This document shows positions 5,856 through 19,398 of a stretch of 64,000 nt of DNA, one piece after another. Made by a program: the position numbers and the translations under genes. The notes under the pieces are model-generated. The model was not told where the DNA came from, searched no databases, and was given only the letters and a program-made list of their open reading frames with translations. The first letter of the stretch is position 1. The number at the start of each line of letters is the position of its first letter. The stretch comes from Escherichia coli (GTDB lineage: Bacteria > Pseudomonadota > Gammaproteobacteria > Enterobacterales > Enterobacteriaceae). The stretch lies in NCBI RefSeq assembly GCF_009931435.1, contig NZ_CP043414.1; one strand, written 5' to 3'.

Positions 5856-7139
5856 TTACTCAATCCGATCTTTGACAATAAAGAAGTAACACAGCGCCCC
5901 GGTGAATGTCACACAGGCCGCGATAACCAGCGCCAGATTAAACGAGTGCGTGGTATCCACTACCCAACCGGTTACGATCGGAGCAAAGGAAGCAAAAACA
6001 AAACTGCCAAAGTTTTGAATCCCGGCGATGGAAGCCACTTTTGTTTCTGACACCATCACCTGCACCAGTCCCCATGCAGATGTTCCCGCGAAATGCACGC
6101 AGAACAGCGCCATTGAGATAAACGCTACAGCCTGGGCTGGCGAGGAGGATTGCACGACCAGCAACGTGCCTAATGCCGACATCATCAAACCGCAGACAAT
6201 AGCCGTTTTACGCGTCTTCGCCAGGTCGTAGCCTTTTTTCGCCAGCCGATCGACAACAATACCGTTAACCCACATCCCGACCGCCGCCGCGAGGAAAGGA
6301 ATCGCCGCCACCCAACCGGTTTTCGCCAGACTGAAGCCTTGCTCGGCTTGTAAATAACCGGGTAACCACGCGATGTAGAGCCAACCGGTATAATTGACGC
6401 CAGAGAAACCTAAAATCATCCCCCAGGTTGTCCGATGCTTAAACAGCGCCAGCCACTCGCTAAATTGTAATTGTGGACGCGGTTTAACCGGCGCGGAGAG
6501 ATAGGTCCGTTCTTCGTCGGTCAGGACAAACTGCGCCCGGTTGCGATACCACGCGTACCAACAGATCCCAACCAGAATCCCCGCCACGCCGATGATGACG
6601 AACATTGCCCGCCAGCCCCATGCCAGCTGCATCAATACAAGAGCAGGAGGCGCAATAGCCTGACCGATAACGGTAGATGAGTTAAAAATCCCCAGCGCCG
6701 TGCCGCGTTCTTTTTGCGCATACCAGTCGGTGATCGACTTTACTCCCGCAGGCATAAATGGCGCTTCGCCAATACCCAGACCGATACGCATTAAAATAAA
6801 GTGGCTAAAAGAATTAACCATTCCTGTTAATGCCTGCATTAATGACCAGAATATTAAGCCTGCGCCTAAAACTATTCGTGGGCCAAAGCGGTCTAGCAAA
6901 ATACCGGAAGGGAGTTGTGAAAAACCATAAGACAGAGAAAATGCAGAAAGCAAAACGCCAAATTCTGTCGCCGATAATCCTAACTCGCCACGAATCGCTT
7001 CGCCTGCCACGCTCAATGACGAACGGTCGAGGAAATTAACGATCCCCGCCATAAATAATAAAACCAGCGTTACTGTCTGAATACGACGAATCCGTTGCGG
7101 TTTATTACCCGCAACACTGGTTGACACATCAACGTCCAT
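5856..7139 (-). CDS. MFS transporter of the anion:cation symporter type (hexuronate/sugar-acid transporter-like, DgoT/GudP/ExuT-like)
   Basis: 427-aa ORF with about 12 hydrophobic segments; N-terminal region LVLLFMAGIVNFLDRSSLSVAGEAIRGELGLSATEFGVLLSAFSLSYGFSQLPSGILLDRFGPR is typical of this family. Not in the K-12 oxyS-argH interval. Confidence 0.85.
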   Translation of the reverse strand: MDVDVSTSVAGNKPQRIRRIQTVTLVLLFMAGIVNFLDRSSLSVAGEAIRGELGLSATEFGVLLSAFSLSYGFSQLPSGILLDRFGPRIVLGAGLIFWSLMQALTGMVNSFSHFILMRIGLGIGEAPFMPAGVKSITDWYAQKERGTALGIFNSSTVIGQAIAPPALVLMQLAWGWRAMFVIIGVAGILVGICWYAWYRNRAQFVLTDEERTYLSAPVKPRPQLQFSEWLALFKHRTTWGMILGFSGVNYTGWLYIAWLPGYLQAEQGFSLAKTGWVAAIPFLAAAVGMWVNGIVVDRLAKKGYDLAKTRKTAIVCGLMMSALGTLLVVQSSSPAQAVAFISMALFCVHFAGTSAWGLVQVMVSETKVASIAGIQNFGSFVFASFAPIVTGWVVDTTHSFNLALVIAACVTFTGALCYFFIVKDRIE

Positions 7140-7205
7140 TTTTAGCTCCTTGAGCGGAATTAATCGATTTGCTGACTATTCAGAAAATAATTAAGCGAAC
7201 CGTTA

Positions 7206-8420
7206 TTACCAGTTCCACAATGTGCCATCTTCCAGTCGTGCGACGGGGAGATACGCCGGGTCATACGGATATTTCGCCGCCAGTTTCTCATCGAAAGAAA
7301 TACCCAGCCCCGGTTCATCGCCTGGGTGCATATAACCTTCATCGAAGCGCCAGCTGTGCGGGAAGACTTCAAGCATTTGTTCGGAATAGCCCATGTACTC
7401 CTGAACACCAAAGTTTGGCACCCAGAGGTCAAAATGCAGCGCCGCCGCATGACAAACAGGCGATAAATCTGAAGGGCCATGCGAACCGGTACGTACCTGA
7501 TAAAGCGATGCAAAATCGGCAATCCGTCGCATCCCGGTAATGCCGCCTGCATGGGTAATCGTCGTGCGAATATAGTCAATCAGCTGCTCTTCGATTAACT
7601 GCTTGCAGTCCCAGATACTGTTAAACACTTCACCGACCGCAATCGGCGTCACAGTATGCTGGCGAATCAGACGAAAACATTCCTGGTTCTCGGCAGGCGT
7701 CGGATCTTCCATCCACAACAGGCGGTAATCCTCAATGCTCTTCCCAAAGCGCGCCGCTTCGATAGGAGTCAGGCGATGGTGCATGTCATGCAACAGATGT
7801 TCGTTAAAACCGAACTTATTACGCACCGCTTCAAATAACTTCGGTGTAAAATCGAGATACTTTTCTGAAGACCACAACTGCTCTTCCGGCCACAGGCCTT
7901 TGGTTGCCGGTTCATACGCCAGTCCTTTGCCCTTCGCCAGGCCATAAGTGGTTTGCATACCCGGTACACCGCACTGCACACGAATCGCCTTAAAGCCCAT
8001 CTGCTGGTGCTTTGCATAGTCTTCAAGGACTTCATCAATCGTGCGCCCGGTGGTGTGGCAATAAACCATCACGCCTTCACGAGAAGCCCCACCAAGCAGT
8101 TGATACAATGGCATATTTGCCGCTTTGGCTTTGATATCCCACAACGCCATATCAATGGCAGAAATGGCCGACATCGTGACGGGGCCACGTCGCCAGTAAG
8201 CACCTTTATAAAAGAATTGCCAGATATCTTCGATACGGCTGGCATCGCGGCCAATTAATTGTGGACAAAGATGATCTTTCAGATAAGAAGCGACCGACAA
8301 TTCGCGACCATTTAATGTGGCATCTCCCAATCCACAAATTCCGCTTGCAGTGGTTATTTTAAGCGTAACGAAATTACGTCCTGGGCAAGTAACAAAAACA
8401 TCTGCAGCAATAATTTTCAT
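7206..8420 (-). CDS. Enolase-superfamily sugar-acid dehydratase, RspA/ManD (D-mannonate dehydratase)-like
   Basis: ORF 7206..8480; start placed at [47 protein letters not shown] (404 aa), closely resembling RspA/ManD N-termini. Likely co-transcribed with the MFS gene downstream. Confidence 0.85.
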
Positions 8421-8789
8421 TATTGCAATCTCCTGTGTTGTAAATAGACGCTTCAAACTTAATTTTACGCCTACTACCATACAAGAGAGAAAGGGCGATT
8501 ATTCAACCGTGATCACATTAAAAATAAAAATTTCCGCCGAGGAACAAAAATATCCTCAAATCTCACCTACACTATTAACTACCATCGTTAAAACAACGTG
8601 TTAAATAATCACATAACAAATTCCTTTAAGGAAAGGAGTTATAACAACAACAAAAGATAATCATATTTTACTTAATTCAATACGTATCGATAGGTTTATT
8701 TAAAAAGGATTTTTCGGAATGAGAGATGAAAAGAAGATACACAAGCAGGAAGAAATACGATTAATATTAGTTGCGGTAAGGGTAGCCGT

Positions 8790-8910
8790 TCCTCCCTTCC
8801 GCAACCCATTAACCGTTGAAGTCACAGACTATTTCAGGCATTTCTCAACTCAAAATAACGACAGCCAACGTGAACTTTATGGCTCTCCAGGATCTGCTTT
8901 GTTTTCCATC
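8790..8910 (+). repeat. Degenerate second copy of the oxyS 3' half (oxyS-like relic)
   Basis: 8813-8905 ccgttgaagtcacagactatttcaggcatttctcaactcaaaataacgacagccaacgtgaactttatggctctccaggatctgctttgttttcc aligns to oxyS 5725-5816 at roughly 75-80 percent identity by eye; the 5' part of oxyS is not recognisable. Confidence 0.7.
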
Positions 8911-10387
8911 AAACAACGGAGCTCAGCGCACTGGCTACCTGTTTAAAGCGAGCAAACCGTCGCCTGAGCATGTGTGCTTTTTCTACATTCGGTTCAAGAC
9001 GAATCACGTTGAGCTGCGTAGCCTTCATGGCCTGTTTGAATCCAGAATAAGCCCCTCCTCCTACTGCCGCACACATTGCAGCCGCTCTACAACCTGACTG
9101 TTCAATATCGACAATTTCAAGAGGCATTTTGCTGGCATCACAAAACATCTGCATCCAGATTCTGGAATGCGTTGGCCCGCCAGAGAAACGAATCGTTTGC
9201 AATGACTTATCAATCTCAATAAGACGGTCCTGATGCAACAAATGAGAAAAGACAACGCCCTGATAAATAGCGTACACCAAATCTTCTCTTTTATGATGCC
9301 CACACAGCCCCAAAAATCCCCCGCTTAATGCCTCATGGTAATTCGAGCCAAACAACCACGGGAAAAAGAGAATATCATTCTGTTTCTCATACCCTCGTTC
9401 CACCCACTCATTAATCACCCGATAACTGTCAGGAAGACCCGGTAAAAATTGCTGCAAGAACCATGTTAAATTACTGGCTGATGTAGGGCTTCCCTCATGG
9501 GCGAAAAATGTACCTGGAATGCTAAATTTCCCCCATACATAGGGATAATCAGAAGGAATAATGCGATCAAAGATTCGCGTTGCAATTGACCAGGTGCCAG
9601 CAACCGCACTTAACGTTGTACTGTCATAGATGCCAGAAGTGAGCGCCGCACCAACGACATCAAAAACACCACCAAAAACAGGCGTTCCGGCGAGAAGCCC
9701 ACATTGGCTGGCTGCTTCAGATGTCACAAACCCAGCTAAATCAGCGGAGCCAATAATATCGGGAACCTTACCCGCAACTTCCTTAATCTCAAATAGGCGA
9801 AAAAGTTCAGCATCATAAGCACTGGTATATTGATTATAAAAATTACTGCCTGAAATATTGGTTTCTTCACAAGCCAGTTTGCCAGTAAGCCGTGAACGTA
9901 TGTAATCATGAACCATCAAAATGGTTCCGATGCGGCCATAATTGTCAGTCTCATGTTTTTTCAACCAATGCAATAGTGCTACAGGGTGCGATGGCCAGAG
10001 CTGTTGCAGACTACGGTGATAACTTTCGCGGTCAATTCCTTGTTCTTTCCAGCTTGCAACCAGTTGTTGTGCGCGAGAATCAGAGGAAACAATGCCGTGT
10101 CGTAAGGGCTTACCTTGCCGGTCGAGCAGGTACAAACCTTTACCATGAGCAGAAAAACTGATGCCATCAATCTGACTCGCAGTAATATTGTTATCTGACA
10201 TCGACAGTGAAATGACCTGGCACGTTACCTTCCATAACGCCTCCATGTCGCGTTCGCAAAAACCAGGACATGGGCTTAACAGAGGTAACGCCTGCGAAGA
10301 GACACCTATTTCACGTCCTTCTGCCGTATAAATTCCCGCTTTGGTTTCTGTACCACCTAAATCGACACCAATAAAATACCGCTCCAT
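8909..10387 (-). CDS. FGGY-family carbohydrate kinase, L-xylulose/3-keto-L-gulonate kinase (LyxK)-like
   Basis: 492-aa ORF MERYFIGVDLGGTETKAGIYTAEGREIGV...; FGGY motifs and strong resemblance to LyxK throughout (DMAELW, HDYIR, EASPTSSGNL-like blocks). Confidence 0.85.
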   Translation of the reverse strand: MERYFIGVDLGGTETKAGIYTAEGREIGVSSQALPLLSPCPGFCERDMEALWKVTCQVISLSMSDNNITASQIDGISFSAHGKGLYLLDRQGKPLRHGIVSSDSRAQQLVASWKEQGIDRESYHRSLQQLWPSHPVALLHWLKKHETDNYGRIGTILMVHDYIRSRLTGKLACEETNISGSNFYNQYTSAYDAELFRLFEIKEVAGKVPDIIGSADLAGFVTSEAASQCGLLAGTPVFGGVFDVVGAALTSGIYDSTTLSAVAGTWSIATRIFDRIIPSDYPYVWGKFSIPGTFFAHEGSPTSASNLTWFLQQFLPGLPDSYRVINEWVERGYEKQNDILFFPWLFGSNYHEALSGGFLGLCGHHKREDLVYAIYQGVVFSHLLHQDRLIEIDKSLQTIRFSGGPTHSRIWMQMFCDASKMPLEIVDIEQSGCRAAAMCAAVGGGAYSGFKQAMKATQLNVIRLEPNVEKAHMLRRRFARFKQVASALSSVV

Positions 10388-10403
10388 GATCCCTCCTTAG
10401 TTT

Positions 10404-11267
10404 CTAAATATTATCCCAGCCGGCAAGGCGCATTTTCTCTTCAATCCATTGACGTGCATGAATAATTTCTAATAGAGGTTCCGTCGCTTTTTCTGTCCAC
10501 ATTTCTATCAGAAACGTTCCGCGATAATTAAGATTACGCAGGATCTTAAATAATTTAATAAAATCTACACACCCTTCACCAAAAGGAACGTCACGAAATT
10601 GCCCTGGAGAATCAGGCGTTACTGGGTACGTATCTTTAAGATGGATTGCGGCAATTCGATCAATCCCCTTTACCAGCTCACTTTCCAGTTCATTACCCCA
10701 TGCGGTCAGATTGCCAACATCCGGATAAACGGTAAACCAAGGGGAATTAATTTTTGTATCCAGGACTTTCCATTTACTAATAGAATTAATAAATGGCGTA
10801 TCCATGATCTCTACAGCACACATAACTTGTGCCGCTGCGGCCTGTTCAGCTGTCCAGGCCATCGCATCTTCAAACCAGGCGATAGTTTCTTCATTCTGCG
10901 GCTCATAATAAACGTCATAGCCTGCCAGTTGGATTGTTCGAATCCCCAAATCCTGCGCCAGGCGTAACGCCTTCAACATAATCGTACGTGCCTGCTGACG
11001 AGTATCTCTATCATGGCTACCAAATGGAAAACGCCGGTGAGCAGACAGGCACATTGTCGGAATACGGATCCCCGTTTGCTGAATGGCGCTAATAAGCTCC
11101 ATACGCTCGGTGAGCGACCAGTCCAGGCGGGCGAGTCGTTCATCATTCTCATCTACCGACATCTCAACAAAATCAAAACCGCAAGATTTAGCCAGGGCTA
11201 GTTTCTCTACCCAACTGGTATTCCTGGGTAGCGCTTTTTCATAAATACCTAACGGGTGGCGTCGCAT
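10404..11267 (-). CDS. L-ribulose-5-phosphate 3-epimerase (UlaE/SgbU family, xylose-isomerase-like TIM barrel)
   Basis: 287-aa ORF LGIYEKALP...GFDFVEMSVDENDERLARLDWS...MCLSAHRRFPFGS...IQLAGYDVYYE...YPDVGNLTAW...LIEMW, matching UlaE/SgbU nearly block for block. Confidence 0.85.
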   Translation of the reverse strand: MRRHPLGIYEKALPRNTSWVEKLALAKSCGFDFVEMSVDENDERLARLDWSLTERMELISAIQQTGIRIPTMCLSAHRRFPFGSHDRDTRQQARTIMLKALRLAQDLGIRTIQLAGYDVYYEPQNEETIAWFEDAMAWTAEQAAAAQVMCAVEIMDTPFINSISKWKVLDTKINSPWFTVYPDVGNLTAWGNELESELVKGIDRIAAIHLKDTYPVTPDSPGQFRDVPFGEGCVDFIKLFKILRNLNYRGTFLIEMWTEKATEPLLEIIHARQWIEEKMRLAGWDNI

Positions 11268-12343
11268 TATTTTCCCTCACGAGTGATCAATTGTTGTTGA
11301 AAGATTTTCCGGCTCTTATTCATGTCACGCTGCAACTGCCATTTTTGTTTGATGAATTTAAATGCCAGTGCGGCGATCAATGTGATCCCCCATACCGCCA
11401 GATTGAAATGCAAACTAAGTCCCAACAGACTAAGGCCGGTAGCAATAACCTGAAGCACAAGTAAGGCACAAAAAACATGACTGACTTTACCCGCCCCACC
11501 GAATGGATCTGTGCCTCCCAATACAATTGCAAGAACCGTCAAGAGCAGATAGGAATCGCCATAGCCCATACGCGCCGAATTAAATCGCGCGAGCATAATA
11601 AGACCTGCTAATACACACAACATGCTGGATATAGCATATATAGCAATTAATACGCGGTCGGTGCGAATACCGCTAAACCATGTGGCGTTAATATTACTGC
11701 CACACATATAAATCGTTTTTCCCGTACGGGTTTTGCCGAGGAACAGAGCTAAAGCAACGGTGGTGACGATAAAAATTATCATCGGTACTGGGATCCCCAT
11801 GATAACTTCAGACCCAATACTGCGGACTACTGGTGGCATACCACTTAAAGCTGCCCCCTTAGTCAGGTAAATACCGATACCACTAATAATGGTCATGCTA
11901 CCCAATGTGACCAAAATAGGGTGAGCGCCTATATGAGAAATAATTGACCCAGTAATAGCTCCAATGATGATGGCAATAAGCATCGCCCCGACAATAGCCA
12001 GGAAGAGCCAAAACAACTGACTACCTGTAGATGCATCTGCGGGTACATATTGAATCAACAGCCAGGCCATAAACAGGCTGGTCAGATTCGCAGTACCGAT
12101 GATTGCCAGATTGAGCCCCCCGCTCAACATGGGTATAAACATCGCAAACGTGAGCAACCCAAGCTCTGGCAATTGAAATGCAATGCTCAGAAAAGTATTG
12201 CCGGTGAAAAAACGCCCCGGCATTACCAGACTAAATAACACCACCGCAATAAAACATATTGATAATAAGCCTGAACTGGTACCATCTAGTGGAAAAAATA
12301 TCCGCTTGTTCATTTCGATCCTCCCGTTAGACGAAACCAACAT
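11267..12343 (-). CDS. Sugar ABC transporter permease (ribose/xylose-type)
   Basis: 358-aa polytopic membrane ORF in an operon with a second permease and a two-domain ATPase. True start may be the internal MNKRIFF Met, since the first codons overlap the upstream permease. Confidence 0.8.
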   Translation of the reverse strand: MLVSSNGRIEMNKRIFFPLDGTSSGLLSICFIAVVLFSLVMPGRFFTGNTFLSIAFQLPELGLLTFAMFIPMLSGGLNLAIIGTANLTSLFMAWLLIQYVPADASTGSQLFWLFLAIVGAMLIAIIIGAITGSIISHIGAHPILVTLGSMTIISGIGIYLTKGAALSGMPPVVRSIGSEVIMGIPVPMIIFIVTTVALALFLGKTRTGKTIYMCGSNINATWFSGIRTDRVLIAIYAISSMLCVLAGLIMLARFNSARMGYGDSYLLLTVLAIVLGGTDPFGGAGKVSHVFCALLVLQVIATGLSLLGLSLHFNLAVWGITLIAALAFKFIKQKWQLQRDMNKSRKIFQQQLITREGK

Positions 12344-13319
12344 CAGTTTCTTTACGTTTTTTGTAATGGGTCACACAAATCGCCGAGACAATAACCACTC
12401 CAATAACGATATTGACGAAATAACTCGAGATGCCAATCAAATTAAGGCCGTTTTTAAGAATACCGATAAGAAATACGCCCATAAGCGTACCAATGACCGT
12501 ACCACGTCCGCCTGATAAACTGGCACCGCCCAATACCGCTGCAGCCAGCACATCCAACTCTCCGCCAACCAATGCATTCGGCACAACTTCACTCATACGA
12601 TAAGCTTGCAGCATTCCACCAATTGCTGCAGCGGCACCAAGATAACCATAAGCAAACAGATAAATTAGCGACACCCGAATCCCAATACGTCTTGCTGATT
12701 CGGTATTCCCTCCCACGGCATAAAGCTGACGCCCAATATGGGTTTTGTTCATTATCATCCACGTCAGAAATGCCATTCCCAGCATAACCACTAACGGTAA
12801 TCCGATCTGGTAATCTTCTCCGCCAAATTCAAAACTCAGGAAAGAACGCTGCGTAATCCACCAATCCGGTAAATCGTAAATACTGTGGCCATTAGTCAAC
12901 CACATCAACATACCGAACAGTAGCGACTGCATACTAATCGTAATGATGATGGAAACGACATTAAGGTAATAAATAAGAATAGCGTTTATCAAACCAAAAA
13001 TGATGCCAAGAAAAACAGCAAACACCAGACAGAAAAATGGATTTGATAGCGTTTCATTAAGCAGTAACGACGCCACAACATATTGCACAACCGAAGCTAC
13101 TGCTGCAAAAGAGATATCAATTCCGCCAGTAACCAATACGACAAATAATCCGAGGGCGAAAATACCCGTTACGGCATAACTTTCCGAGAGATCGAGCAAG
13201 TTCTGTATTGATAAAAACTCATCGCTCATGATGGAAAAAAATACCAGCATGAGAACAATGACCCATCCTAACCAAGCTTCGACTGAACGAGGAAACCGCA
13301 GCCGCATAAAGCTAACCAT
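12327..13319 (-). CDS. Sugar ABC transporter permease (ribose/xylose-type)
   Basis: 330-aa polytopic membrane ORF; start overlaps the ATPase stop (translational coupling). Confidence 0.8.
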   Translation of the reverse strand: MVSFMRLRFPRSVEAWLGWVIVLMLVFFSIMSDEFLSIQNLLDLSESYAVTGIFALGLFVVLVTGGIDISFAAVASVVQYVVASLLLNETLSNPFFCLVFAVFLGIIFGLINAILIYYLNVVSIIITISMQSLLFGMLMWLTNGHSIYDLPDWWITQRSFLSFEFGGEDYQIGLPLVVMLGMAFLTWMIMNKTHIGRQLYAVGGNTESARRIGIRVSLIYLFAYGYLGAAAAIGGMLQAYRMSEVVPNALVGGELDVLAAAVLGGASLSGGRGTVIGTLMGVFLIGILKNGLNLIGISSYFVNIVIGVVIVSAICVTHYKKRKETDVGFV

Positions 13320-14829
13320 TAATCACCTCCGCCAACTGCTGCTCGGTATAATTCGAAGGCAACAGCTCATTAATAATCTTTCCGCGCTTCATATGAAAAA
13401 TACGATCGCAGTTATAATAAGCTTCTGGTGCTTCATCAGTAATTAATATCACTGAAATACCCACACCTGAAAGCCGATGAATAAGCTGGTAAATACTATC
13501 TTTTGCGCCAATATCTACACCTACCGTTGGCGCATCCAGAATTAAAACCTTAGGTCGTGTTAAAATCCATTTAGCCAGGACAACCTTTTGTTGATTGCCG
13601 CCAGATAGCGTTGAAAGTGGATTATTTGGATCGGTGACTTTAATATCCAAATCCTGGATCCACTCCTTGACTAAGGTTTCTTTTCGATTTTCATCAATAA
13701 ACCCCGATGCCGTCTTTAAACGATCCAGAATCGAGAGCACCATATTATCGCTGATAGATTGGGGTAATACGGCCCCCAGTGTCAGGCGATCTTCTGAAAC
13801 ATATGCTATTCCCAGTTTTACCGCATGCGTGTTGTCTTTAATTGTAACGGGCTTACCTTCCAGATAAATATCACCACTATCTGGTCGAGTAATACCGAAA
13901 AGACTCAATGCTAATTCAGTTCTCCCCGCACCAAGTAAACCACACAATCCCAGAACCTCGCCCTGGTGTAGTTTTAGAGAAACATCTTCAAATTGCCCTT
14001 TTCTGCATAATTTGTTTAGTTCAAGGACTACTTTGCCTTCAACGCTATTTGGTAGCTTCTTCTGGTGGACTATAGTTTTTCCGGTCATTAACTCAGTAAT
14101 ATCGCCCGGAGAAAGTTGATTGGCAGCCCACGTTCCAATTATCTCTCCATCACGGATGACCGTAATCCGATCTGAAATTTCCTTAACTTCATCAAGGCGG
14201 TGGCTAACAAAAACTACGGTAATATTTTTATCGCGTAAGTAATTCACTGTGCGTAGTAATTGATTAACTTCTGTACGCGTCAATGATGCCGTTGGCTCGT
14301 CCATGATGACTAACCGGGCATCGGCAATCAGAGCCCGGCAAATCGCGACCTGTTGGCGTTGTGCAATCGGCAAATGTTGTACTAACGCATCAGGATCGAG
14401 ATTGAATTGCAGCTCCTGAATTATTTTCTGCGATACATCTCGAAGTTGTTTTTTTCTGTGCAGCCCTAAATATCCCTTCAGGTTGTATTCAAAAGCGATA
14501 TTTTCAGCAACAGAAAGATTTGGGAATAAAGAAAGATCCTGATATATCACCTGAATACCCAGTTCCCGAGCTTTATCAGGAGAAAGACGAGTCCAGGACT
14601 TACCATCTATAATAATTTCACTTCCCGAATCAGGGACATAAACACCACACAGCGTTTTGATCAGAGTACTTTTACCACACCCATTCGCACCAGCAAGACA
14701 ATGAACCTCACCTTTATTTAAGGTAAGATTGATATTCTTTAGAGCCCTATGGCCACCGAAACTTTTCGTTAGTGACCTTAGCGTCACTAATGGTTGCTCC
14801 GCATTCTTCTCTATAATATGAGGCATCAT
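13312..14829 (-). CDS. Sugar ABC transporter ATP-binding protein with duplicated ABC domains (RbsA/MglA type)
   Basis: 505-aa ORF with two Walker A sites (GANGCGKST and GLLGAGRTEL) and two signature motifs (LSGGNQQK region). Confidence 0.88.
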   Translation of the reverse strand: MMPHIIEKNAEQPLVTLRSLTKSFGGHRALKNINLTLNKGEVHCLAGANGCGKSTLIKTLCGVYVPDSGSEIIIDGKSWTRLSPDKARELGIQVIYQDLSLFPNLSVAENIAFEYNLKGYLGLHRKKQLRDVSQKIIQELQFNLDPDALVQHLPIAQRQQVAICRALIADARLVIMDEPTASLTRTEVNQLLRTVNYLRDKNITVVFVSHRLDEVKEISDRITVIRDGEIIGTWAANQLSPGDITELMTGKTIVHQKKLPNSVEGKVVLELNKLCRKGQFEDVSLKLHQGEVLGLCGLLGAGRTELALSLFGITRPDSGDIYLEGKPVTIKDNTHAVKLGIAYVSEDRLTLGAVLPQSISDNMVLSILDRLKTASGFIDENRKETLVKEWIQDLDIKVTDPNNPLSTLSGGNQQKVVLAKWILTRPKVLILDAPTVGVDIGAKDSIYQLIHRLSGVGISVILITDEAPEAYYNCDRIFHMKRGKIINELLPSNYTEQQLAEVING

Positions 14830-14892
14830 AATATTCCTGAATACGACTAAAGGAATTCCGGGTCAAATTTGACCCGGTGATTTACGGTAAAA

Positions 14893-15897
14893 TTACAAGC
14901 CTAGCTTCACTAAACGTCGTGTATTTTCAAGATCGAGCTTTTCTGGATTATCACTATAAATAGTGTTGTTATTAACCTTGATCTCGCCCATATCACCGAT
15001 TTTTACACCGTCTTTAATAGGTTCACCGTTCATCATTGCCGTCGCAACCTGGACAAAAACCTTACCCGCAATCATAGGGTTTGAAATATATCCCCCATCA
15101 ATGGCACCTTTTTCGAGTAGCTTAATTCCCTGACCTGGAGTGAAGGTTCCAAAAACGCAAATTGCATCATTTTTCTTCCGCTTATCAATAGCACGCCCCG
15201 CACCAATTGGTCCTTGTGAACCAAATGACATAATGCCTTTAAGATCTTTATATTTAGACATTAAATCGTTCGTCGTGCGCATTGAATCATCCACCGACTC
15301 AGCAACACCAAAACGATCTTCAACCAACGTCATATTTGGATAATGTTCTTTTTGATAGGCAATCGCGGCATTGGCCCAGTCATTTACCAAAGGCACAGTC
15401 AGACTGCCGACAAACATGGCGTATTTACCTTCTTCGCCCATACACTTCGCCATATCTTTCATATGATTGGCACCCATTGTCTGGGTATTTAACAACTCAA
15501 AATCCCAATCTGCATTTTTTTGATCTGGTGATTCGTGGGTAATAACTTTAATACCGGCTTCTTGTGCACGCTTAAGTACAGGTTCAAGAACCTTTGCATC
15601 GTTAGGAACAACACCAATAACATCCACTTTTCGTGCAATTAAATCTTCAATCGCCCGAACCTGTTCAGCTGGATCTGCCGTTGTAGGGCCGACCTGCCAT
15701 GCATCAACCCCCAATAGTTTTCCTTCATTTTTAATGCCTTGTTCCATCACATTAAACCAGGGAATTCCACCGACTTTTACTACTACCCCCATCGTAAAAG
15801 GTTTATTCGCTTTTTGTGATGTTACAGTCTGATCAGCCCATGCAGCAGTGGAAGATAATACGGTAGCAATAAGGCAGGGTAAGATTAATTTTTTCAT
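14893..15897 (-). CDS. Periplasmic sugar-binding protein of the ABC transporter
   Basis: 334-aa ORF with signal peptide MKKLILPCLIATVLSSTAAWA and a periplasmic-binding-protein type I fold pattern; first gene after the regulator. Confidence 0.8.
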   Translation of the reverse strand: MKKLILPCLIATVLSSTAAWADQTVTSQKANKPFTMGVVVKVGGIPWFNVMEQGIKNEGKLLGVDAWQVGPTTADPAEQVRAIEDLIARKVDVIGVVPNDAKVLEPVLKRAQEAGIKVITHESPDQKNADWDFELLNTQTMGANHMKDMAKCMGEEGKYAMFVGSLTVPLVNDWANAAIAYQKEHYPNMTLVEDRFGVAESVDDSMRTTNDLMSKYKDLKGIMSFGSQGPIGAGRAIDKRKKNDAICVFGTFTPGQGIKLLEKGAIDGGYISNPMIAGKVFVQVATAMMNGEPIKDGVKIGDMGEIKVNNNTIYSDNPEKLDLENTRRLVKLGL

Positions 15898-16019
15898 CGT
15901 AATTTCCTTAAGAAATAGTTCAGGTGTCAGGAAAACTCGATATAATATCGACCTGACTATTTATATAATTTATAATCCCTTAGGCATTGATTAATAATTT
16001 AGACAATAAATAACGCCTA

Positions 16020-16829
16020 TTATTTATCAACCTCCACAATGTTTAATTGTGGAAATTGTGTTCGATACCGAGTATCTGTACAAACATTAGTCACCAGAAT
16101 ATCGATTTCATCCAGCGTGCATATTTTACTAAATGCATACTGTTCAAACTTAGTGGAGTCGACCAGCAATATTTTTTGTCCTGACACCTGAAGCATCACC
16201 TGTTTAAGTCTGGCATTAATTTCACTGCCATCGCGGACACCATTCCCCAGATTCAACCCCTGGCATGAAAAGAAAAAACTGTTGATTTGAAAATTTCGGA
16301 TCGCACTCTCTGCAACCGGGCCATGAAAATCATCATGTCGCTCAGAATACTCACCACCGATACCAATAATTCGAACTCGATCACGGCAAGCTAACGCCTG
16401 AATTATCCGTAATGAATTTGTAACTACGGTAACATCTATATCGGGAATTTGACGAGCTAAAAACCAACAAGTACTACTGTTATCCATTAAAATACAATCA
16501 CCAGGGTGAATAAATTGCAATGCGGCCTTCGCAATTCTGGCTTTTATATCAGGATTTTCTTCAGTCCGTTTACGGAATGATTCCGCACGATCGATACTAT
16601 TATCTTGCCACGCATTATCGGCGAGCATAACCGGAGCGCTATCAGATGAATCCAGAGCGACCGCGCCACCAAAGCTACGGATTAACTTTTTGTTGCGCTC
16701 CAGTACCGTTAAATCCCGACGAATTGTCTCAGGAGACGCTTTAAATAATCGTGATAATTCAGTTACCCGCACAGCACCTTGTTTTTGTACATGTGCGCAT
16801 ATCATTTTATGGCGCTCTGCCTGCAACAT
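16020..16829 (-). CDS. DeoR-family transcriptional regulator
   Basis: 269-aa ORF with N-terminal HTH (VRVTELSRLFKASPETIRRDLTVLERNKKLIRSFGGA) and a DeoR C-terminal sugar-phosphate-binding region. Confidence 0.85.
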   Translation of the reverse strand: MLQAERHKMICAHVQKQGAVRVTELSRLFKASPETIRRDLTVLERNKKLIRSFGGAVALDSSDSAPVMLADNAWQDNSIDRAESFRKRTEENPDIKARIAKAALQFIHPGDCILMDNSSTCWFLARQIPDIDVTVVTNSLRIIQALACRDRVRIIGIGGEYSERHDDFHGPVAESAIRNFQINSFFFSCQGLNLGNGVRDGSEINARLKQVMLQVSGQKILLVDSTKFEQYAFSKICTLDEIDILVTNVCTDTRYRTQFPQLNIVEVDK

Positions 16830-17270
16830 AGTATCGGTCCGTTATTATCAAATTAGCATGCTTATATAATTAACTGTTCCCTCATAAAATAAAGTGATAG
16901 GAATCAAGATTCATTTTATAATTATAATCGCAAACAGGAATGGTGATCTTTATCACAAATTAAATTGAGAACACTCTACTATTTGACATTACTTTGAGAT
17001 ATCGGTCACTAAATAAGTCTTATTCTGCCATCTAACGAAAAATTTAAATACAAAAACAAAAATAATCGGGCATAGCAATCGCTTCCATTCATGACCGAAT
17101 ACGCCCGAATAAAACCGTTTATACCCACTTATCCTCTTTCGTTGCCTTCTTACATGCCTTGAATATTTTACATTTCTTATATTCAGCGTAATTTAGGAAA
17201 CATAATTTATGAGCAAAAAAAGCCCAAACTCAAAAGTTAAAGTTTATTTATATAATACATACAGATTATC

Positions 17271-17975
17271 GTGGAGTTAAAAATGGATATGCTAAAGGAA
17301 AAAGTTCTTGCTGCGAATTTATCATTACCCCTTCATCAGTTAGTGACGTTTACCTGGGGAAATGTTAGTGGTGTTGATCGCGAAAAAGGTGTCATGGTTA
17401 TTAAACCTTCTGGGGTCGAATACAGCCAAATGGGCATTGCAGATATGGTGGTAGTGGATTTACAAAGTGGTGAAGTTATTGATGGACACAGGAAACCCTC
17501 TTCAGACACCGATACTCATCTGGCGCTATACCGTGCTTTCCCGGATATTGGTGGTATCGTTCATACCCATTCCCGACACGCCACAATATGGGCTCAGGCC
17601 GGAAAAGATCTCACGGCCTTTGGGACAACCCACGCTGATTATTTCTACGGCACTATCCCCTGTACACGCCCCATGAAGGATGACGAAATTAATGGACAAT
17701 ATGAATATGAAACGGGGCGAGTGATTATTGAAACGTTCAGACAACGAGAAATATCTCCCGCTGACATTCCGGCTGTTTTAGTAAACAGTCATGGCCCCTT
17801 TGCCTGGGGAACTGATCCCGCGAACGCCGTGCATAACGCCGTTGTACTTGAAGAAATTGCCTATATGAATCTCTTTACACAACAACTACAGCCCCATCTT
17901 ACGGCTATTCAACAGCCTCTACTGGATAAGCATTTTTTACGCAAGCATGGTGCCAATGCTTATTACGGGCAGTAA
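17271..17975 (+). CDS. L-ribulose-5-phosphate 4-epimerase (AraD/SgbE/UlaF class II aldolase family)
   Basis: 234-aa ORF; [41 protein letters not shown]...[17 protein letters not shown]...[16 protein letters not shown]...HSHGPFAWG...[17 protein letters not shown] is very close to AraD. Start may be one of the downstream Mets. Confidence 0.88.
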
Positions 17976-18024
17976 CCCTCTTAGCATGGCCTGGCGTTTT
18001 GCCAAGCCATAAATCGCCTAAGAC

Positions 18025-19398
18025 TTACTCCAACCGCGCCTGCGCAAAAGCAATCGCCTGCGCCACCTGCTGCGGTGAGACGCCGCCTTTTGCCGCACGC
18101 TTGTCGAGGCACGATTGCAGCGACAGAATCGGATAGACATCTTCGCCAATCACCTGACTGAATTTCTGCAACTCACTGAGCGGCAGATCTTCCAGCGGTT
18201 TGCCCTGACGAATGGCTTCCACCACCGCTTCACCAACAATATGGTGCGCCTCGCGGAACGGCACACCTTTCGCCACCAGGTAATCCGCCAGTTCAGTGGC
18301 GTTCGCATACCCCTGCTGCGCCGCTTCCTGGCAACGTGGGCGTTTCACCTGAATGCCGTCCAGCACCAGCGCCGCCATATGCAGGCAGTCCAGCCAGGTA
18401 TCGAGCGCGTCGAATAAGCCCTCTTTGTCTTCCTGCATATCTTTGTTGTAAGCCAGCGGCAAACCTTTCAGCGTCATCATCATGCCAGTCAACGCGCCCT
18501 GAACACGACCGCATTTACCCCGAATCAGCTCCAGCGCATCCGGGTTTTTCTTCTGCGGCATTAATGATGAACCGGAAGTCACGCGATCAGAAAGCTCCAC
18601 AAAACCCGCTTCGCCGGTGTTAAAGAAAATCAGATCTTCGGCAAAACGCGACAAATGCACCATACCGATAGCGGCGGCAGAAAGCAGTTCCAGCACGTGG
18701 TCGCGGTCAGAAACGCTGTCGAGACTGTTACGGGTCGCCGAGGCAAAGCCCAGCCAGCCTGCTAACTGTTCACGGTCGATTTCATAAGCCGTTCCCGCCA
18801 GTGCGCCACAGCCTAACGGGCTGACATCCAGACGCTTAAGCGCATCCTGCAAACGACTTTCATCACGCGCCAGCATCTCAACATAGGCCAGGCACCAGTG
18901 CGCGAACGTCACCGGCTGGGCGCGTTGCAGGTGAGTGTAACCAGGCATTACCGCGTCCTGATTATTCTGCGCGGTCTCGACCAGAGCGGATTGTAACTGT
19001 CGGTTAGCCGTCAGTAACTCGCTAACGGTATCTTTGCACCACAGTTTCAGGTCAGTCGCTACCTGATCATTACGGCTACGCCCGGTGTGCAGTTTTTTGC
19101 CTAACTGGCCCACTTTGTCGATCAGTTTGCCTTCTACCCAGCTATGGATATCTTCAGCGTCGCTTTCAAGAATTTGTTGTGGTCTGGCGCGAACATCTTC
19201 CAGCAGCACATTGAGCGCCTCTTCCAGTTGCACCTGTTCTTCTGCGGTTAACACGCCTACCGTTACCAGCGCTTTGGACCAGGCCACAGAGCCAACAATA
19301 TCCTGCTCCGCCAGACGGTAATCAAAGCGCAGTGAGTCGTTGAATTGTTTAAACCGTTGATCTGCTGCCTGGGTAAAACGCCCGCCCCAAAGTGCCAT
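18025..19398 (-). CDS. argH: Argininosuccinate lyase
   Basis: 457-aa [47 protein letters not shown], full-length ArgH. Confidence 0.95.

Follow-up and report, generated by a model that had tools for sequence, protein, structure and literature searches.

A conserved eight-gene cassette in an accessory island of Escherichia coli with a predicted role in the uptake and catabolism of a free L-2-ketopentose, most likely L-xylulose

Which sugar is taken in by a gene cluster that couples an ATP-binding cassette (ABC) importer to a LyxK-like kinase and two pentulose-phosphate epimerases? The question is raised by an accessory island in the Escherichia coli chromosome around oxyR-argH, which lies within the 64-kb stretch of DNA analysed here (contig NZ_CP043414.1; hereafter the window, to whose first base all positions refer). 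The island carries eight intact open reading frames (ORFs) at positions 8909-17975, and the answer to which we incline, as a probable rather than a settled one, is that they equip the cell on their own to take up and break down a free L-2-ketopentose, L-xylulose being the most likely one. Seven of the genes are tightly packed on the minus strand, partly overlapping, and read as one operon, while the eighth, encoding a 4-epimerase, is divergent. RefSeq gives the island genes generic names only, and families were assigned here with NCBIfam models that carry curated equivalog cut-offs. The gene content of the island, the families of its proteins, the conservation of the cassette and the signature of its binding pocket are matters of direct observation.

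The three enzymes belong to families that act on pentulose phosphates or their precursors. The kinase (8909-10387, minus strand) is a member of the FGGY family that scores below every equivalog cut-off, but it aligns over its full length with LyxK of strain K-12 at 43% identity and 412 bits, whereas solved FGGY kinases, including E. coli XylB and LsrK, reach at most 130 bits. Judged by these scores LyxK is its closest characterised relative by a wide margin, which places it in the LyxK (L-xylulose / 3-keto-L-gulonate kinase) clade as a predicted L-xylulose 5-kinase; one source (JGI) labels two of the kinase relatives in the cassette group L-xylulokinase. The neighbouring gene (10404-11267, minus strand) encodes an L-xylulose-5-phosphate / L-ribulose-5-phosphate 3-epimerase of the SgbU/UlaE family, 71% identical to K-12 SgbU, with scores of 476 bits to NF009689 and 458 bits to TIGR00542 (cut-off 272). 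The divergent gene (17283-17975, plus strand) encodes an L-ribulose-5-phosphate 4-epimerase of the AraD/SgbE/UlaF family, 72% identical to K-12 SgbE, with 434 bits to NF009002 (cut-off 386) and 414 bits to the araD model TIGR00760 (cut-off 389). Both epimerases therefore exceed equivalog cut-offs on whole-protein score. The start of the 4-epimerase is most likely the ATG at 17283 rather than the GTG at 17271, based on RefSeq and on orthologue lengths. An earlier, sequence-only reading of this DNA had placed the pathway at the same coordinates and had called a LyxK-like kinase, an SgbU/UlaE-like 3-epimerase and a divergent AraD/SgbE-like gene, all of which is borne out here.

The importer has the architecture of the CUT2 class, with a fused two-domain ATPase and two permeases. 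The ATPase gene (13312-14829, minus strand) matches the XylG, AraG, RbsA and LsrA models at 400-450 bits, below their equivalog cut-offs. Permease 1 (12327-13319, minus strand) matches the NCBIfam RbsC and AraH models and permease 2 (11267-12313, minus strand) those for AlsC, RbsC and LsrD, all of the latter below cut-off; the start of this second permease is most likely at 12313, in agreement with RefSeq and with orthologues of 348 residues. The periplasmic substrate-binding protein (14893-15897, minus strand) has an N-terminus that reads as a Sec signal peptide ending AWA/DQ, and belongs to the AauA/LsrB/RhaS branch as a predicted L-xylulose binder. The operon is headed by a regulator of the DeoR/GlpR family (16020-16829, minus strand), which falls below the cut-offs of the FucR, SrlR, AgaR and UlaR models.

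In the proposed route, the periplasmic protein would bind L-xylulose in its furanose form and the ABC importer, formed by the ATPase and both permeases, would take it in unphosphorylated. The LyxK-like kinase would then phosphorylate it at C5 to L-xylulose-5-phosphate, which the SgbU-like enzyme would epimerise at C3 to L-ribulose-5-phosphate and the SgbE-like enzyme would in turn epimerise at C4 to D-xylulose-5-phosphate, from where carbon would enter the pentose phosphate pathway. The DeoR-family protein is probably a repressor of the two divergent units, lifted once a phosphorylated intermediate builds up; other members of the family respond to phosphorylated intermediates.

Evidence on the imported compound comes first from the binding protein. 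Its best solved relatives are 3D02, from Klebsiella, and 9I1M, which is AauA of enterohaemorrhagic E. coli (EHEC) crystallised with alpha-D-ribulose (PMC12307932). The island protein and AauA of the Sakai genome share 49% identity over 271 residues in both lobes (BLASTP, E = 2e-96). AauA has a dissociation constant of about 2 uM for alpha-D-ribulofuranose and about 600 uM for L-arabinose, and it contacts its ligand through K37, W43, E118, H167, E196 and S223, with His167 stacking on the sugar and bonding the C2 and C4 hydroxyls (PMC12307932). Five of these six contacts are kept in the island protein (K37, W43, E118, E196 and S223 correspond to K41, W47, E122, E200 and S227), whereas Val171 stands in place of the sixth, H167. 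On these grounds the protein is related to AauA but is not predicted to bind D-ribulose. Across 77 loci the pocket signature is KWEVES in all 20 cassette orthologues and KWEHES in the 57 other relatives, without exception in either group. Eight positions cleanly split these two clades, and residues 171 and 272 are the only radical changes among them, Val and Ser occupying these positions in every one of the 20 cassette proteins and His and Trp in all 57 non-cassette relatives. The cassette clade is also set apart in a protein search of 5.8 billion sequences, where its full-length orthologues are 79-99% identical and 332-334 residues long and are followed by a gap down to 68% identity or less.

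The configurations of the four ketopentoses are (3R,4R) for D-ribulose, (3R,4S) for L-xylulose, (3S,4S) for L-ribulose and (3S,4R) for D-xylulose, which makes L-xylulose the C4 epimer of D-ribulose. A pocket that still holds the C3 hydroxyl as in AauA but has given up a contact at C4 would suit L-xylulose best among the four. The sequence-only reading had also listed L-ribulose, and it can be argued that L-ribulose is the substrate, alone or on a par with L-xylulose. In that case the kinase would give L-ribulose-5-phosphate and the 4-epimerase alone would be enough to complete the route; the AraD-family match of that enzyme is strong, and ketopentoses are bound by AauA-type proteins. We nevertheless regard this as quite unlikely. 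L-ribulose differs from D-ribulose at C3 as well as at C4, but K41 and E122, the counterparts of residues reported to contact the C3 hydroxyl, are unchanged. The kinase is LyxK-like and not AraB-like, the ribulokinase models of NCBIfam scoring only 42-68 bits against it. Moreover, the 3-epimerase would be superfluous, yet it is present in every orthologous locus whose contig reaches the gene (19 of 20; the contig of the remaining locus, L027, ends before it). Conservation of the 3-epimerase makes sense only if the product of the kinase is L-xylulose-5-phosphate, as it would be with L-xylulose as the imported sugar.

A sister clade of the binding protein, 327 residues long and retaining His171 and Trp272, is found in Enterobacter, Pectobacterium, Pantoea, Serratia, Rahnella and other genera, in operons that also encode a D-allulose-6-phosphate 3-epimerase (AlsE), an AlsK-like ROK kinase and an RbsK-like kinase (for instance at L044:14537-17084 and L054:14555-17090). 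These operon genes suggest a D-psicose-type ketose as the ligand, and possibly a locus for uptake of sugars of the D-psicose/allose type. D-psicose and D-ribulose are alike in configuration at C3 and C4, which would match the histidine kept in this clade. The sister clade thus supports the view of a family that binds ketofuranoses.

The distribution of the cassette provides a second line of evidence. When one genome per species was scanned, 20 orthologous loci came to light, in Atlantibacter, Citrobacter, Erwinia, Pantoea, Yersinia (including Y. pestis), Serratia, Affinibrenneria and Providencia, and a cassette in Brenneria was added by a separate contig look-up. All loci on sufficiently long contigs contain the same eight genes in the same order, and the regulator gene heads the operon in all orthologous cassettes. 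The surroundings are unrelated, with the fuc operon beside the cassette in Yersinia, hyp genes in Brenneria, rtc genes in Pantoea and a phosphotransferase system (PTS) in Providencia. The cassette is a mobile, self-contained unit, and because the same eight genes occur alone in unrelated neighbourhoods, the imported compound must be the kinase substrate itself. The suggestion of the sequence-only reading that the substrate is a free L-pentulose is in this way strengthened by a binding protein of the AauA clade, by a single changed contact in its pocket and by eight genes that travel on their own.

The neighbourhoods bear in the same way on a second alternative, in which an aldopentose or pentitol (L-lyxose, L-xylose, xylitol or L-arabinitol) is imported and then converted into L-xylulose by an unlinked isomerase or dehydrogenase. 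AauA does bind L-arabinose weakly, and the Yersinia cassette adjoins the fuc operon. In Yersinia enterocolitica (L002:1-7771) the neighbour is a complete L-fucose operon (fucO, fucA, fucP, fucI, fucK, fucU and fucR), a position that may reflect no more than the insertion site, but that could matter should L-xylulose be supplied to the route by an aldose isomerase. The same enzymes are furthermore paired with a Zn-dependent dehydrogenase in clusters of Klebsiella (L007:4250-13060) and Serratia (L009:5340-13030). These two clusters share with the island a LyxK-like kinase (51-54% identical), a 3- and a 4-epimerase, ABC uptake and the lack of a decarboxylase, and differ from it in the additional dehydrogenase, an RbsB-like binding protein, a single permease and another gene order. 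A pentitol is probably oxidised there to L-xylulose, and the dehydrogenase beside each enzyme trio fits a polyol-to-L-xylulose variant of the island route. Import of an aldopentose or pentitol by the island cassette is nevertheless very unlikely in our estimate: the cassette occurs in many genera and neighbourhoods without a linked converting enzyme, the dehydrogenase-linked variants have a different, RbsB-like binding protein, and the closest characterised binding protein favours a ketopentose more than 200-fold over an aldopentose. The sequence clusters to which the Klebsiella and Serratia kinases belong are very common in these genera, with 829 and 1289 members. A decarboxylase-free L-xylulose route is therefore common in genomes of the Enterobacterales and not unique to the island; what is particular to the island is the coupling of an AauA-type ketopentose importer to this route in the absence of any upstream converting enzyme.

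That absence was examined by tblastn with SgbH, YiaK, YiaO and the Klebsiella Zn-dehydrogenase as queries. No homologue of any of the four was found in the 64-kb window (E <= 1e-3), and none within 10 kb of the 20 orthologous cassettes (E <= 1e-10). An isomerase is likewise absent from the window and from the surroundings of these cassettes of other genera. For the Ula PTS and for UlaG, neither of which was searched by sequence, no unassigned ORF is left in the island. The sequence-only reading had reported that the operon lacks the decarboxylase, the reductase and the tripartite ATP-independent periplasmic (TRAP) transporter of the known routes, and that it relies on an ABC importer instead of PTS uptake; the first statement agrees with the empty searches of the window and of the surroundings of the 20 cassettes, and the second with the assignment of all eight ORFs to other functions.

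These searches also bear on a third alternative, that a six-carbon acid of the ascorbate / 2,3-diketo-L-gulonate route is taken in and processed with the help of the chromosomal SgbH or UlaD. It is textbook knowledge that 3-keto-L-gulonate is the better substrate of LyxK, and '3-keto-L-gulonate kinase' is the name that relatives of the kinase carry in some databases. No decarboxylase is present, however, in the window or beside the 20 cassettes in diverse genera, and the known acid routes rely on TRAP or PTS uptake. The relatives of the binding protein bind neutral furanoses, and the pocket glutamates E122 and E200 would be unfavourable to an anionic ligand. We consider this origin of the substrate highly improbable, and L-xylulose remains the preferred ligand.

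Comparison with characterised systems places the island between several of them. Both the Aau system of EHEC and the Rbl system of Citrobacter rodentium resemble it in having an LsrB/RhaS-like binding protein, a fused ATPase and two permeases; permease 1 of the island is 45% identical to an Aau permease and the binding protein 49% identical to AauA, and Rbl likewise has a ketopentose transporter and an FGGY kinase in one operon. However, the island has a LyxK-like kinase in place of a D-ribulokinase and a pair of L-pentulose-phosphate epimerases, it lacks the KpsF-like isomerase of Rbl, and it departs from both systems in the change of His167 to Val in the pocket, in its DeoR-type regulator and in its predicted ligand, L-xylulose. 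The rbl genes are absent from 949 E. coli genomes in the study that described them, which does not mention xylulose (Cottam et al., Nat Commun 2025, PMC12307932). The island thus works like Rbl, yet it is not a member of the Rbl system. With the yiaK-S operon (lyxK-sgbH-sgbU-sgbE; 2,3-diketo-L-gulonate / L-lyxose) it shares the last three steps to D-xylulose-5-phosphate, but it is without the YiaK reductase, YiaL, the SgbH decarboxylase and the YiaMNO TRAP transporter, and its regulator is of the DeoR type whereas PlaR of yiaK-S is of the IclR type. Homologues of both epimerases and a regulator of the DeoR family also occur in the ula system (the L-ascorbate PTS, UlaD/E/F and UlaR); the island differs in lacking a PTS, lactonase and decarboxylase, and its regulator scores only 112 bits to the UlaR model (cut-off 244).

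The Lsr system for autoinducer-2 (AI-2), with LsrACDB and LsrK, is similar in design, since it too has a binding protein of the LsrB family, a CUT2 importer and an FGGY kinase that traps an imported furanose. Homology of the binding protein and kinase to their Lsr counterparts is remote, the best three solved LsrB structures reaching 82-84 bits and LsrK 106 bits. However, the island proteins lie far under the equivalog cut-offs for LsrB (103 bits, cut-off 384), LsrK (138, cut-off 528) and LsrA (401, cut-off 586), LsrF, LsrG and LsrR are absent from the island, and its downstream enzymes are pentulose-phosphate epimerases. The closest precedents for the cassette are all predictions or variants, namely an 'SgaR - L-xylulose' regulon predicted for Bifidobacterium bifidum, a yiaK-S-like cluster of Histophilus somni that combines an ABC importer with a decarboxylase that is still present, and automated 'L-xylulokinase' labels. 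Literature searches directed at L-xylulose pathways and transporters turned up no account of the cassette, and the sequence-only reading likewise knew of no such description. Two modules already known are joined here in a combination that is new and conserved, and the predicted ligand is new as well.

Several points weigh against L-xylulose and against a working pathway in every carrier. The identity of the ligand, the substrate of the kinase, the inducer and the direction of regulation are all inferred. At the level of sequence, 43% identity to LyxK leaves the specificity of the kinase unfixed, and LyxK itself phosphorylates 3-keto-L-gulonate as well, and better. Insertion sequence (IS) elements interrupt the kinase gene in some E. 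coli strains, a sign that selection may be weak, at least in part of the lineages. The positions that split the two binding-protein clades are not enriched near the ligand contacts (one of eight observed, against 0.85 expected), and the argument from His to Val therefore rests on one contact residue. In addition, the atom numbering in the AauA paper is ambiguous, as it cites a C5 hydroxyl that is absent from a ketopentofuranose (PMC12307932), and it is therefore not fully certain which hydroxyls are touched by His167 and Glu118.

The kinase is the fastest-evolving gene of the cassette in every lineage pair (L010-L029), with 59-70% identity compared with 82-95% for the binding protein. Decay of the E. 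coli kinase was considered and rejected: the protein retains 85 of the 86 positions that are invariant among 22 relatives, so the gene is not a decaying one, its divergence is evenly spread, and rapid evolution of the kinase is seen everywhere. A separate case is Y. pestis NCTC5923, in which reading of the sequence places an ORF resembling an IS200/IS605-type (Y1) transposase between the binding-protein and ATPase genes (L019:11205-11714). A database entry for a Y. pestis kinase aligns over only 71% of the query, with the N-terminal FGGY domain alone on record. The transposase-like ORF and the partial kinase entry together suggest decay of the cassette in Y. pestis.

In E. coli the island occupies positions 8742-18024 (9283 bp), between the manD upstream region and the argH stop codon at 18025, and is low in GC content (39-46%, against 50-57% in the flanks). 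In an alignment with the island-less strain RSHH22 (L087), homology stops at 8741 and restarts at 18025. The empty site (L087:3747-3918) is a manD-argH spacer of about 172 bp with a palindrome resembling a repetitive extragenic palindromic element, and this spacer is gone where the island sits; the island has therefore replaced sequence and is not a plain insertion. No flanking direct repeat or target duplication is evident in alignments with island-less strains. Among 5426 complete E. coli genomes the whole island is present in 146 (about 3%), with one chromosomal copy in each and never on a plasmid; the remaining 1426 E. coli matches span just the first 61-215 bases of the query, which are the manD upstream spacer. 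Several E. coli genomes have a variant of the island that is 98.3% identical and whose match is split by an insertion. In strain 23AR0303 (L089:1910-4164) the kinase gene is broken by IS1, and for one further split match an IS5-family transposase is listed under the match. Such insertions split the island, and the pathway is therefore inactivated in at least some E. coli lineages. Between oxyR and the island lie a major facilitator superfamily (MFS) transporter gene and a D-mannonate dehydratase (ManD) gene (5856-8480), the latter scoring 730 bits against a cut-off of 550. Their GC content is normal and their upstream spacer is present in 1572 of the 5426 genomes, so they form a separate, far commoner accessory pair.

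A number of candidate control elements were also identified. An AT-rich control region (16830-17282) separates the divergent regulator and 4-epimerase genes. Upstream of the binding-protein gene, an imperfect palindrome at 15926-15956 (TCAGG TCGATA TTA TATCGA GTTTT CCTGA), read from the sequence, is a candidate operator. It is kept in the cassettes of Atlantibacter and Citrobacter, the more distant ones not being alignable; in line with this, footprinting of the same region over 14 loci found it too diverged beyond Atlantibacter and Citrobacter, with one palindrome shared. A pattern match located a GC-rich hairpin (14858-14877, minus strand) with an eight-pair stem (CCGGGTCAAATTTGACCCGG) between the binding-protein and ATPase genes, which could limit read-through and so yield more binding protein than membrane components. 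Just 3' of the kinase stop codon, at 8771-8806, the inverted repeat GTTGCGG...CCGCAAC is a possible candidate for the operon terminator, although it has no clear T-run on the minus strand. A promoter scan of the island returned 13 sites, fewer than the 24.4 in shuffled sequence, so no promoters are assigned, and an Rfam scan of positions 8400-18100 found no RNA families.

A host source of free L-xylulose exists, since human Caco-2 epithelial cells release the sugar (JACS 2026, PMC12921845). Its concentration in Caco-2 preparations was estimated at 0.4-1 mM, a figure that the authors deem an overestimate, and L-xylulose activates the AI-2 receptor LuxP with a half-maximal effective concentration of about 6 uM, whereas D-xylulose does not; L-xylosone also activates it, and the two compounds are described as a mammalian 'AI-2 mimic' from stressed gut epithelial cells (PMC12921845). 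This leads to the tentative and, in our judgement, rather unlikely proposal that the cassette is dedicated to the capture of host L-xylulose, and possibly of its oxidised relative L-xylosone, serving both as a private carbon source and to remove a cue. If this were true, the carriers, which include some E. coli, Yersinia, Citrobacter and Providencia, would gain a carbon source close to the epithelium and would remove an inter-kingdom quorum-sensing cue as Lsr does with AI-2. The replacement of His by Val would in that case have retuned a D-ribulose-type binder to the 4S configuration common to L-xylulose and the AI-2 precursor 4,5-dihydroxy-2,3-pentanedione (DPD).

Should L-xylulose be the ligand, the cassette would provide a dedicated bacterial uptake route for this sugar, and it would do so with enzymes of the LyxK/SgbU/SgbE type, whose known links so far are with acids derived from ascorbate or with growth on L-lyxose selected in the laboratory. 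The change in the binding pocket would be a natural one-residue switch of specificity, and the competition for ketopentoses among enteric pathogens, seen for D-ribulose with Aau and Rbl, would extend to a second stereoisomer. A strain-variable island of E. coli would then be linked to a sugar that is secreted by the epithelium and acts as a quorum-sensing mimic, and who consumes this host signal, and with what effect on colonisation, would become a testable question.

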